A stretch of 64,000 bases of DNA from Escherichia phage HMD-9. The notes below the pieces were generated by a model that made no database searches, was not told the origin of the DNA, and saw only the letters and a list, made by a program, of their open reading frames with translations. The stretch's first letter is position 1; every line of letters starts with the position of its first letter. A program made the translations under genes and the position numbers. Below are positions 24,209 to 29,932 of the stretch, piece by piece. The stretch is taken from sequence record PV287714.1. One strand, given 5' to 3'.

Positions 24209-24238
24209 ACTATAACACAACATGAGGGACTTGTAAAC
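24209..24238 (-). promoter_or_regulatory. sigma70-type early promoter (GTTTAC -35, TATAGT -10)
   Basis: Minus strand GTTTAC-N18-TATAGT; near-identical copy at 37737-37766. Confidence 0.6.
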
Positions 24239-24595
24239 TACATTTTGAACTTTTTAGTACGCGTAATAGGCATGCGTCGATTTTATACTGTTTCATTGTT
24301 TGAAGAGCAGTATCAAAAACAGCATTAATGACACCAATTGGATTTCCACCCATGTTTTTAAGCTTAACTAATGATAGTTTCTCATTAACACCTATCATTA
24401 CGATATGCATCATTTTATCGCCCGGCTTAACGTTTTATTCGTATCACCGCCAGAGGTGTATGTACAAAATCTAAATCCAGGAAGCACACTTTCTTCACCG
24501 GCTTGAATAGCAAAAATTTGAGGTATTTTATGCTTAGGATTTAAGTTAACAACCGGCGCCGAAGCGCCGTCAAATAATTCTGTAATAAGTTCCAT
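24210..24595 (-). pseudogene. decayed partial duplicate of the alt 5' region (two frame-shifted ORFs of 61 and 67 codons)
   Basis: Fragment products MELITELFD...CTYTSGGDTN and MMHIV...QYKIDACLLRVLKS align to Alt residues 1-55 and 64-120; frame breaks in an A-run; nucleotide identity also visible (aattctgtaataagttccat at both 5' ends). Confidence 0.6.
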
Positions 24596-24598
24596 GAT

Positions 24599-26647
24599 TT
24601 ATCCTTGAACAAACTTGTAAGGCATGTTTGCAATATCTATGCAAGACGCAATAATTCCAAGAGATGATTCTGCTTTCTGTTTAACATTTGATGAAACAAA
24701 CGATGCAAAGTCAACTCTATCTTCTATATCACCTGTCATTGTAACCAATTCACCAGTTTCCATTAAACGGTCACCGTCATAAATTACCGATTCGGTGAGT
24801 TCTTCTGTGGTCATAACTTCAGCTTGAATAAGCTTGTTGTTAGTTCTAATTGTTCCATCGTTGTAAGATGCATCAGTTATTTTATTAACTTTGACCATTA
24901 ATCCACGTGGCAAAATGACTTCCATTTCATTTGAAGGCGCTAAACTTCCACCGGGTAAAACAACATTGACCTTATCAGCCCCAGTAATAACCCATCCAAT
25001 TCCAACTAAATTATCGCTAGAATTTACAAGTCCTTCATCAGTTTTATCAATAGAAACACTTAAACGCTTTTCGTCTGGTAAAACACCCACAGATGAATCA
25101 GTCATCCAAGTACCAAAAATATTTGGATATAATGATGTTGACACAAAGTTTCTAAAATAAAAAACTCGATTTTTTACCATTGCTTCGTATATTGAAGGTA
25201 ACATTCGTTGTGAACGATACAAAGTAATACCTTTTGGTAATCGTTCACCATTTTTAAAGGCTGAATCTAAATTATCAATGGCTTGTTCTATTTCAGGTGC
25301 TGTTAAAATACTTGTACGCTCATCTGGATTATATAATCCCAAAAGAGCATTATTCATGTCTACATATCCTGAACCTACATATTCACGAATTCCGCGTTTT
25401 TGCGCTGGTGTGTATTTAGATGAATCTTTATTTTCGACTATAGGATGTAATGACCATCCAGCGGTAAGAGCATATCCACGTAATTCTCTTCGAATAATCT
25501 TTGTTTTTATTGCATTCCAAGAATTTTGTACTAACTCATTTGCAGCATCTTGGTTTAAATGCGAATGTCTGTTAATATTTCTTTCAAACCAAGCACCTTT
25601 ATATTTTTCTAAAGTATCATCGACGATAGAAGCAATAGTTTCTAAAGTTTTTATTGAAGTAATAGATTCTTTTCGTAATTTTTCTAAAGCTTTATTTTTT
25701 ATTTCTGCATTAATAATGGATTCTTTATCTTCAGGAATTATAGAAGCTTCTCTGAATGCCATCCCAGCTGTAACACTGCTAAGAGCATTCTCTAATGCAA
25801 ATCCTGAAGTAGAAATAACAGTTAATTCGTTAGCATCAGAAATTAAAGGCGCGTCGGCGGGTTTATTTAATTCTGCTGCTGAAGCCTCAAATTTTTGAAA
25901 CATTGGTGTTTCAAATCTAGAAGATTCCAATGACTGACTTTGTGCAATTGCTCTACGGGAAATTTTAACTTTAACAATAACAGCTTGGTCAGAACGCTTA
26001 TCATTTTCTTGCGCAATAGATGCAGCAATTGCCTCATTTTTAGTTACTTGAGCTCCAGTATCTTTATTGATATAAACATCACCGACCTTCGATTCAACTT
26101 TAGTAAAGAGCTCGGTGCTAATTTCCGGAACTCCTGGAATGTCTTCTAGTGATACATTTTTGCGATGTATAAGAATATATGCATACTTTTTATCGTAATC
26201 CCAGAGTTCCTTAAGAAGGACGTATCTGCCGCCTGAACGACTGCGGATAAGTCTATCAGCAATAACTTGAATTTGTCGAGCTTGACCAGCAGTTTTAGAC
26301 TTAAGAATACGAAGCATGCAGGCATCAATTTTATACTGACGCATCGTTTGCATCGCAACAGTAAAAACTGAATTGATGTAATTAATTGGGCTTGGACCGA
26401 GACCTTTTAATTTAGCAATTGAACCTTTAGCAGTTAATGTAAAAGGAACGATGTGCATCATTTTATCGCCCATCTTTAAATCACGGTTAGTATCACCTCC
26501 AGATGTATAAGTACATAAACGAAAGCCTGGTTGTTCTATTGCGTCATCAACATGAACTGAAAAAATTTGTGGTATTTTCTTCTTTGGATACAAATTTGTA
26601 ATCGGAAGAGTAGTATTTTCGTCAAATAATTCTGTAATAAGTTCCAT
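24599..26647 (-). CDS. alt: Alt ADP-ribosyltransferase (packaged, modifies host RNA polymerase)
   Basis: 683-codon ORF beginning ATGATG; second ATG gives 682 aa, the T4 Alt length as recalled; position between gene 54 side and gene 30. Confidence 0.88.
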   Translation of the reverse strand: MELITELFDENTTLPITNLYPKKKIPQIFSVHVDDAIEQPGFRLCTYTSGGDTNRDLKMGDKMMHIVPFTLTAKGSIAKLKGLGPSPINYINSVFTVAMQTMRQYKIDACMLRILKSKTAGQARQIQVIADRLIRSRSGGRYVLLKELWDYDKKYAYILIHRKNVSLEDIPGVPEISTELFTKVESKVGDVYINKDTGAQVTKNEAIAASIAQENDKRSDQAVIVKVKISRRAIAQSQSLESSRFETPMFQKFEASAAELNKPADAPLISDANELTVISTSGFALENALSSVTAGMAFREASIIPEDKESIINAEIKNKALEKLRKESITSIKTLETIASIVDDTLEKYKGAWFERNINRHSHLNQDAANELVQNSWNAIKTKIIRRELRGYALTAGWSLHPIVENKDSSKYTPAQKRGIREYVGSGYVDMNNALLGLYNPDERTSILTAPEIEQAIDNLDSAFKNGERLPKGITLYRSQRMLPSIYEAMVKNRVFYFRNFVSTSLYPNIFGTWMTDSSVGVLPDEKRLSVSIDKTDEGLVNSSDNLVGIGWVITGADKVNVVLPGGSLAPSNEMEVILPRGLMVKVNKITDASYNDGTIRTNNKLIQAEVMTTEELTESVIYDGDRLMETGELVTMTGDIEDRVDFASFVSSNVKQKAESSLGIIASCIDIANMPYKFVQG

Positions 26648-26679
26648 CATATCCTCTCTAGTGTTTATTCTATTTATAA

Positions 26680-28348: not shown

Positions 28349-28614
28349 TATTCATCCTTCAGAGTTTGGTTTACAGCTCTATTATAAATCAATTCATCAT
28401 TAAGCTCAGTCAAAGACTTATGATATGTGGTTCTAACTTTATTTCCTTGCATCCAGTGCTTGATATAAATGAAACCTTGCTCTACACATTTTTTAAAAAT
28501 TCGTTCGTCTTTTTGAGCTCGGAACTCTGGATTGCATCTAAAAAATTGATTTACGTGACCGTAATCACGTGTAGTATTACCTTCATTTTCATAAATAGTG
28601 TGAACAACAAACAT
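28348..28614 (-). CDS. hypothetical protein (30.1 position)
   Basis: 88-aa ORF, translationally coupled to neighbours. Confidence 0.55.
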   Translation of the reverse strand: MFVVHTIYENEGNTTRDYGHVNQFFRCNPEFRAQKDERIFKKCVEQGFIYIKHWMQGNKVRTTYHKSLTELNDELIYNRAVNQTLKDE

Positions 28615-29477
28615 TAGAATGCTCCTTGAAAAATATTATCACCACTAGTAAGTCTATTAAAATACCCTGCGTCGCCAGGCTTAATATAACTCCACGTGTG
28701 GAATGGATTCATATGATACGGGTGTGTATAATATGGATTATATGGATGTGTATAATATGGATGATATGGATTTAATCCAGGCGTTCTCCAAGTAGTGTTC
28801 CAAGGAAAAGAATCGTTTTTAACCATCTTCTCAATTACATCTTTTATAGCTTTTTCACTATCAAAACTTTCTTTATTTTCCTTTGGTGAAAAAAGCTTAT
28901 TCTCTACATCGTTCCATGTATAAACTCGCTGTGCAGTTTTTGGAATACTGTCACGCTCTCCTCGAGCCATCCAATAAACTGGAACATTTAATATTTCACT
29001 CGCGTGATCGCAGTGGTGAGCGAGATCATCAATATAACAAATTACGTTATATTTCTCTTTTGCCTTTTTGAACAACTCTTCTTTTGAAGAATCATGACCA
29101 CACATCAGTACTTCTGAAAAGGCACCAGGAAAAAGAGCATTCAAATTAAATTGACGATTCAGCAGAGCGTCAATAGAATCACCCAGTGCTGTAACAGCTA
29201 CAAAATTATAATCTTCTTTTAATTTGTTAATTACACACAGAGCATCTTTATATGGAGACAAATAACGAATAAAATCTGATCGATTATATTTTTCAATTAA
29301 CTTGACACCAAGTTCTTCATCACAATTAAAGAGTTTACCCGGAGAAATAAATTTCTCATCTTGGATCATTTTTAAAATATGTTCTAACGGAAGATTATAT
29401 TTCTGAGCAAAATAAGGAAGGCCTGATTGCCAGCTTAAACATACTCCATCAATATCAGTCAAAATAGTTGGCTTCAT
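28614..29477 (-). CDS. HAD-superfamily phosphatase-like protein (possible 5'-deoxynucleotidase) with His/Tyr/Pro-rich repeat tail
   Basis: 287-aa ORF; N-terminal DxDGV motif (ILTDIDGVCL); C-terminal NPYHPYYTHPYNPYYTHPYH encoded by a tandem DNA repeat. Confidence 0.6.
   Translation of the reverse strand: MKPTILTDIDGVCLSWQSGLPYFAQKYNLPLEHILKMIQDEKFISPGKLFNCDEELGVKLIEKYNRSDFIRYLSPYKDALCVINKLKEDYNFVAVTALGDSIDALLNRQFNLNALFPGAFSEVLMCGHDSSKEELFKKAKEKYNVICYIDDLAHHCDHASEILNVPVYWMARGERDSIPKTAQRVYTWNDVENKLFSPKENKESFDSEKAIKDVIEKMVKNDSFPWNTTWRTPGLNPYHPYYTHPYNPYYTHPYHMNPFHTWSYIKPGDAGYFNRLTSGDNIFQGAF
28722..28771 (-). repeat. imperfect tandem repeat (~24-26 bp x2) encoding the PYYTHPY repeats
   Basis: gtgtgtataatatggattatatggat followed by gtgtataatatggatgatatggat. 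Confidence 0.7.
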
Positions 29478-29932
29478 AGAGAGTCTCTTAATAGGTTTAA
29501 CACATCAATAAATTCAGCTTCGGTTAGTATTGTATCATCTTTTGTTAGACCACTAGCCATGCTGTGCTTCAAAACTTTTCCTTTCGAGGCTTGTAATGCA
29601 TCACGAAAGCCCCTGTTTTGGATCGCTGCTTCAAAATATGCATTTGTATATAATTCTTTCCACGCCGGGGAGTATCTTGAAAACGGAACTCCAAGCCAAA
29701 AGAGGGTCCCACGGTCCTGAGCTCTAGCATAAGATCGTCCAGCTTGTCGGGCGGCAAGCCCGGATAACCCAAATATGCGTCTTTGCTGTTCAACATTTTT
29801 CACCTTACACCCTTGGAGGAATCCTTCGAGACCTCCAAATTGAATACCATCCATAACGAAAGGCCATTGGGCGAAATTACTTAATGCACATGATGGCCAT
29901 TTAAAATTGCTTCTTATCTCTAGCTCAGACAT
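29474..29932 (-). CDS. NADAR/YbiA-like (DUF1768-type) protein
   Basis: ORF-track start is TTG; ATG gives 152 aa; N-terminal LSNFAQWPFVMDGIQFGGLEGFLQGCK resembles the E. coli YbiA / NADAR signature FSNFAAWP..DG....EHYFQAQK (from memory). Confidence 0.5.
   Translation of the reverse strand: MSELEIRSNFKWPSCALSNFAQWPFVMDGIQFGGLEGFLQGCKVKNVEQQRRIFGLSGLAARQAGRSYARAQDRGTLFWLGVPFSRYSPAWKELYTNAYFEAAIQNRGFRDALQASKGKVLKHSMASGLTKDDTILTEAEFIDVLNLLRDSL

Follow-up and report, generated by a model that had tools for sequence, protein, structure and literature searches.

The 152-residue protein encoded on the minus strand at 29474..29932 of the window (the whole stretch of DNA analyzed here, 64,000 nt of a T4-like, Tequatrovirus genome) is the ortholog of phage T4 gp30.3 and, within the NADAR superfamily, belongs to the phage clade (AdfN/PF08010). 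We consider it very likely to be an active AdfN, an enzyme that would remove DarT1-installed ADP-ribose from guanines of phage DNA, with the activity carried over from T4. This conclusion combines the orthology, NADAR fold, catalytic residues, and full length documented below with the published activity of the T4 protein. What adfN does has already been established, by experiments on the 97%-identical T4 ortholog, so there is no new biology in the assignment itself.

Gene 30.3 in the window and in T4

The region from 28600 to 30700 matches 701 phage records by megablast, the top match having 98% identity. The window carries the gene series alt, alt.1, 30 (ligase), 30.1-30.9, rIII, 31, and cd, which is the same as in T4, and adfN lies between 30.2 and 30.4, again as in T4, with both gene overlaps the same. 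The original prediction placed an ORF at 29474-29932. It is present at exactly these coordinates, on the minus strand and encoding 152 aa, and the two peptides quoted from it (KWPSCALSNFAQWPFVMDGIQFGGLEGFLQGCKV and LSGLAARQAGR) are both found in its translation. The coding sequence extends from an ATG (29930..29932) to a TGA (29474..29476); a TTG in the same frame, two codons 5' of the ATG, would give an alternative product of 154 aa. The features of the locus are as follows.

29474..29932, minus strand: coding sequence of adfN (ortholog of T4 gene 30.3), 152 aa plus stop; phage-clade NADAR with the core fold only
29474..29477, minus strand: ATGA overlap of the adfN stop and the gene 30.2 start, from the junction CTCTATGAAGCC and the ORF coordinates; translational coupling
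29925..29932, minus strand: 8-nt overlap of the gene 30.4 end and the adfN start, from the ORF coordinates; likewise in the T4 annotation

The GC content of adfN is 42.7%, compared with 36.4% for the window, which places it at the 95th percentile of segments of the same size (z 1.7). This deviation is mild, and we rejected it as an argument for recent acquisition of adfN, which it does not prove.

The translated ORF matches PF08010 (Phage_30_3) with an E value of 1.4e-69 and 232.7 bits (cut-off 36), and the match covers the profile in full (positions 1-138 of 138). It is identical to T4 gp30.3 at 148 of 152 residues (~97%), with no gaps. The four substitutions (R11K, Q62R, K107R, and I125M) are conservative and at variable positions; none falls in an invariant or nearly invariant column of the family. 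At the nucleotide level there are 16 differences between the two adfN genes, 11 of them synonymous in the adfN frame. Features common to T4 AdfN and the window protein include E36, K43, H123, G37, the C-terminal helix, the neighboring genes, and the overlaps. No functional difference between the two alleles is expected, and from the 97%-identical protein we infer that the window allele, with its four substitutions, would behave like T4 AdfN.

T4 annotation also includes an internal ORF, 30.3', that overlaps adfN (29569..29796 in the window, minus strand, 75 aa), and it could be proposed that this is the functional product of the locus. The frame is open both in T4 and in the window, and the two versions have 87% identity. 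However, each of the 10 nucleotides that differ from T4 in the overlap alters an amino acid when read in the 30.3' frame, but 8 of them are silent when read as 30.3. Furthermore, a relative with 58% identity has a different, unrelated-looking ORF in the 30.3' frame, and the point mutants that alter the T4 phenotype, E36A and K43A, are in the main frame (PMC11825919). Given this substitution pattern, with no sign of selection on 30.3' as a protein, we rejected it as a real product and regard such a reading as vanishingly improbable.

NADAR fold and active site

Resemblance of the N terminus to the signature of NADAR proteins was the starting point for the original prediction, and the YbiA motifs given there (FSNFAAWP..DG....EHYFQAQK...AARMGR) are accurate: E. 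coli YbiA reads FSNFAAWPIKVDGKTWPTSEHYFQAQKF...MVAARMGRDR. As a single-sequence comparison, the likeness does not rise above chance. A phmmer search of the PDB with the window ORF aligns residues 17-68 to YbiA 29-81 with an E value of only 1.4, the Pfam search gave no match to PF08719 at E ≤ 1, and there was no match in NCBIfam or PADLOC. Because single-sequence searches for NADAR similarity were not significant, profiles and structure were needed.

At the profile level the likeness holds. We gathered 97 homologs, with an aligned subset of 59-60 sequences, and compared the gp30.3 family with an alignment of 38 YbiA family sequences using hhalign; the two families align over 125 columns with 97.3% probability and an E value of 2.3e-11. 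When the gp30.3 family profile was searched against the PDB, YbiA was the sole match (E 0.0012). Although the window protein itself has no direct match to PF08719, 8 of 60 family members match that profile individually (best E value 1.5e-7). The AlphaFold2 model of the window protein, for which the T4 sequence from the GenBank locus was left out of the alignment, has a pLDDT of 93.1 and a pTM of 0.88. It has the YbiA fold (a helical core between two small sheets), and the top three Foldseek matches are all NADAR proteins, namely YbiA (2b3w), the Phytophthora NADAR (8bau), and the Geobacter NADAR (8bat), with noise below them. The fold is that of a NADAR, and the profile match is significant; the original prediction thereby withstood the two outcomes named as refuting it, absence of a significant NADAR profile match and a fold unlike that of YbiA.

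The columns that are invariant in the aligned 59-60 sequences are P13, L17, S18, N19, F20, F25, E36, G37, F38, Q40, K43, Q50, G58, A61, G65, A112, H123, T134, L136, T137, and R149. Among them are E36 and K43, which correspond in the alignment to YbiA E48 and K55, the active-site Glu and Lys of the NADAR motif E..xxQxxK. The positions that bear on activity are as follows.

29825..29827, minus strand: codon of Glu36, catalytic, contacts the distal ribose; invariant; equivalent to PnNADAR E43 and YbiA E48 by hhalign
29822..29824, minus strand: codon of Gly37, at the position of the YbiA-type His (EHYFQ vs. EGFLQ); invariant Gly in the gp30.3 family
29804..29806, minus strand: codon of Lys43, catalytic/ADP-ribose-binding; invariant; equivalent to PnNADAR K50 and YbiA K55
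29564..29566, minus strand: codon of His123, last beta-strand, signature of the phage NADAR clade; invariant in the 59-60 sequences
29480..29521, minus strand: C-terminal alpha-helix, residues 138-151, intact; from the AlphaFold2 model, and identical to T4 there; missing from the frameshifted RB69 allele

In the model, H123 lies in the strand formed by residues 120-123. The residue in this last strand differs among NADAR groups, being Glu in the YbiA family, Asp in the DarG1 family, and His in phage NADARs (PMC11543638, PMC11125620, PMC12945103). By hhalign and in the model there is no obvious counterpart of the pyrophosphate-binding NDxYWG of YbiA in residues 124-137 of the window protein, a segment where the model confidence falls to about 80.

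It was noted in the original prediction that the His of EHxFQ is replaced by Gly (EGFLQ) and that activity was uncertain for this reason. The substitution is real: G37 stands where the YbiA family has a nearly invariant His49. One could read it as the mark of a catalytically dead NADAR relic. However, Gly occupies this position in 59 of 59 gp30.3-family sequences, an invariance that implies selection rather than decay, and the T4 protein with the same EGFLQ is active both in vitro and in vivo (PMC11825919, PMC11125620, PMC12945103). The mostly synonymous substitutions between the window gene and T4 adfN also count against a relic. G37 therefore does not represent a defect, and loss of catalysis has, in our view, a negligible chance of being the correct explanation.

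E. coli YbiA (PF08719, 2b3w) has ~20% identity to the window protein and differs in its NDxYWGxGG, which AdfN is without, and in its context, a LexA-controlled host operon with an N-glycosidase role on riboflavin intermediates. The window protein falls outside the YbiA family proper: it has His in place of Glu125 and Gly in place of His49, and it lacks NDxYWG. These differences matter for the suggestion that it is a housekeeping N-glycosidase of the YbiA type, acting on riboflavin-pathway intermediates or other small-molecule N-glycosides with no part in defense evasion. Such a role would fit the common fold and Glu/Lys pair, the annotation of E. coli YbiA as an N-glycosidase, and the description of its riboflavin-intermediate role (PMC11543638). 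On the other hand, YbiA-family signatures are replaced in the window protein (E125 by His123, H49 by Gly, with D130 and W133 absent), the gene is found in 1510 phage records, and T4 adfN shows a phenotype specific to DarTG1 and is not needed on K-12 (PMC11825919, 10.1101/2025.11.20.689424). Overall, we judge a housekeeping role to be extremely unlikely.

DarG1 (the BC4488-family antitoxin, represented by the Geobacter lovleyi NADAR, 8bat) works by the same chemistry as AdfN, which differs from it in being an orphan. There is no DarT beside adfN; its neighbors are 30.2 (HAD-like) and 30.4, and the sole nearby ART domain is that of Alt (PF03496), four genes off. DarG1 (219 aa) has an N-terminal beta-beta-alpha extension that makes up a proposed, basic DNA groove, whereas AdfN (152 aa) has no extension, and the model of the window protein begins directly at the core strand. 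Where DarG1 has Asp in the last strand, AdfN has His123. Given the lack of an adjacent DarT, of the N-terminal extension, and of a PADLOC match, together with His for Asp, the window protein is not a DarG1 antitoxin. In addition, T4 AdfN does not replace DarG1 in uninfected cells (PMC11125620, PMC11825919). The NADAR of Phytophthora nicotianae (8bau, an ADP-ribose complex) is a eukaryotic stand-alone protein with extra N-terminal and inserted elements and with Glu125 where AdfN has His (PMC11543638).

Anti-DarTG1 activity of AdfN

The T4 protein gp30.3 was named AdfN, for "anti-DarT factor NADAR" (Johannesman et al. 2025, Nat Commun; PMC11825919). T4 or T2 deleted for adfN forms no plaques on DarTG1 cells, and supplying adfN ectopically rescues RB69 on such cells (PMC11825919). 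[quoted passage not shown] The RB69 allele is itself frameshifted, with loss of the last 15 residues and reduced activity, and the phage is DarTG1-sensitive (PMC11825919). Rescue is impaired by E36A and by K43A, and the truncation likewise impairs function (PMC11825919). Purified T4 AdfN strips ADP-ribose from DarT1-modified DNA, with E36A as the inactive control, and no binding of T4 AdfN to DarT1 was seen (PMC11825919). Consistent with the genetics, transposon-insertion mutants of adfN drop out on DarTG1 hosts specifically, making the gene conditionally essential (preprint 10.1101/2025.11.20.689424).

NADARs hydrolyze the ADP-ribose that DarT1 attaches to guanine (Schuller et al. 2023; PMC11543638), and T4 gp30.3 cleaves guanosine-ADPr but not thymidine-ADPr in vitro (Toxins 2024; PMC11125620). 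It has no action on cytidine-ADPr, and the phage NADAR has been described as a bare core domain (Toxins 2026; PMC12945103). It should be noted that the methods of the 2024 study give the T4 construct as "residues 1-208", which is at odds with a protein of 152 aa (PMC11125620). We treated this as an error because the supplement states that the construct is full-length and that the T4 phage NADAR is NP_049816.1 (PMC11125620).

For the window phage, the expected sequence of events would begin when a host DarT1 toxin ADP-ribosylates guanines of the infecting phage DNA and so blocks replication. AdfN would then cut the N-glycosidic bond between guanine N2 and ADP-ribose, acting enzymatically, as the cognate antitoxin DarG1 does, rather than through binding of DarT1. 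With unmodified DNA restored, the phage could replicate in DarTG1-carrying E. coli. The role put forward in the original prediction, that of an ADP-ribosylation eraser or anti-DarTG factor, is in line with this, the T4 ortholog having already been characterized as the anti-DarTG1 factor AdfN.

Other phage anti-DarT factors (AdfA, AdfB, and AdfM) have a purpose in common with AdfN, that of DarTG escape, and none of them is encoded at the adfN locus. AdfM (tk.4) is a macrodomain protein that shields T4 from DarTG2, and its predicted activity is the removal of ADP-ribose linked to thymidine (PMC11825919, 10.1101/2025.11.20.689424).

Gene neighborhood, partners, and distribution

The other part of the original prediction was the location of the ORF about 3 kb from an Alt ADP-ribosyltransferase gene. 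Such a gene is indeed present at 24599..26650 (minus strand), 2.8 kb from adfN, and its product has 98% identity to T4 Alt and matches PF03496 with an E value of 2.4e-33. Downstream from it, alt.-1 and alt.-2 (24210..24595, minus strand) are short ORFs that repeat the Alt N terminus (MELITELFD...); in the T4 annotation they are considered an old partial duplication of alt.

Could AdfN be an eraser that is paired with the phage's own Alt or ModA/ModB, reversing or proof-reading a modification of protein, RNA, or DNA? The presence of Alt near adfN is compatible with this idea, as is the preservation of the 30.3-to-alt order in a T4-like contig that carries a 58%-identical gp30.3 homolog. A further point in its favor is that T4 AdfN reaches full activity only when the infecting phage is T-even and performs poorly for non-T-even phages (PMC11825919). 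Against the idea, four genes, DNA ligase among them, separate alt from adfN, and no ART domain occurs within 8 kb of the gp30.3 homologs on two distant phage contigs. Alt modifies arginine in proteins, whereas the NADAR activities reported in the studies cited here are on nucleobase-linked ADP-ribose, with none on protein (PMC11125620, PMC11543638, PMC12945103). No phenotype has been reported for the loss of adfN when the host is without DarTG1 (PMC11825919, 10.1101/2025.11.20.689424). We therefore find pairing with the phage's own transferases very unlikely, and favor removal of DarT1-made ADP-ribose from phage DNA.

The two distant contigs encode gp30.3-family NADARs (L003, 8001..8468; L007, 8001..8456) with 37-42% identity, in unrelated early-gene neighborhoods; one has genes for PRPP synthetase, a GGDEF protein, and SprT-like proteins in its surroundings, and the other has DNA ligase ~4 kb off. 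In neither is there an ART gene or a 30.2-like HAD gene beside the NADAR. We rejected a functional link between adfN and alt from gene context as unsupported because the synteny occurs only in T4-like phages and is absent from these two contigs. The closeness of the two genes is conserved Tevenvirinae gene order.

Immediately downstream from adfN is gene 30.2, the product of which is considered hypothetical in T4.

28614..29477, minus strand: gene 30.2, directly downstream from adfN
28614..28800, minus strand: C-terminal tail of gp30.2, residues ~225-287, a disordered Pro/Tyr/His-rich repeat (NPYHPYYTHPYNPYYTHPYHMNPF)

There was no significant match for gp30.2 in Pfam, NCBIfam, or PADLOC, and PHROGs gives a family of unknown function alone. 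The AlphaFold2 model has a pLDDT above 90 for residues 1-190, and Foldseek finds HAD enzymes, the most compact matches being 5'(3')-deoxyribonucleotidases (TMt 0.63-0.70). Invariant residues of the family are D8, D10, K132, D150, and D151. From these features we predict that gp30.2 is a HAD-superfamily phosphatase resembling 5'(3')-deoxyribonucleotidases. An insertion of 10 residues distinguishes the tail from that of T4, and the tail diverges far more than the remainder of the protein; it is missing altogether in many homologs (about 200-220 aa).

As T4 AdfN does not save uninfected cells from DarT1 (PMC11825919, PMC11125620) and is tied to a T-even context, it is conceivable, if improbable, that this context is supplied by a phage partner, either the coupled gene 30.2 or, less likely, the virion protein Alt. 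Its role might be to act on ADP-ribose once this has been released, or to bring AdfN to DNA that is being replicated.

By tblastn, adfN is present in 1510 phage records, with coverage of 80% or more in 1503, and the hosts of these phages include Escherichia, Klebsiella, Shigella, Aeromonas, Acinetobacter, and Vibrio. In several close T4-like phages (proteins P0007, P0016, P0017, and P0042, as well as hit H43, Shigella phage SP21535) gp30.3 is truncated or fused. The fragments are 86-109 aa long, or have just 38% coverage, and they resemble the frameshifted allele of DarTG1-sensitive RB69. Such fragmentary proteins in relatives suggest recurrent loss of adfN.

In a sample of 30 GenBank records out of these 1510, none names the function and most read "hypothetical protein"; the annotation could accordingly be updated. 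Here a counter-defense function was recovered from sequence alone, and the initial guess agrees with work published from 2023 to 2026. Because the window phage carries an intact adfN allele, the phage would be expected to resist defense of the DarTG1 type, and this information should be useful for host-range prediction.
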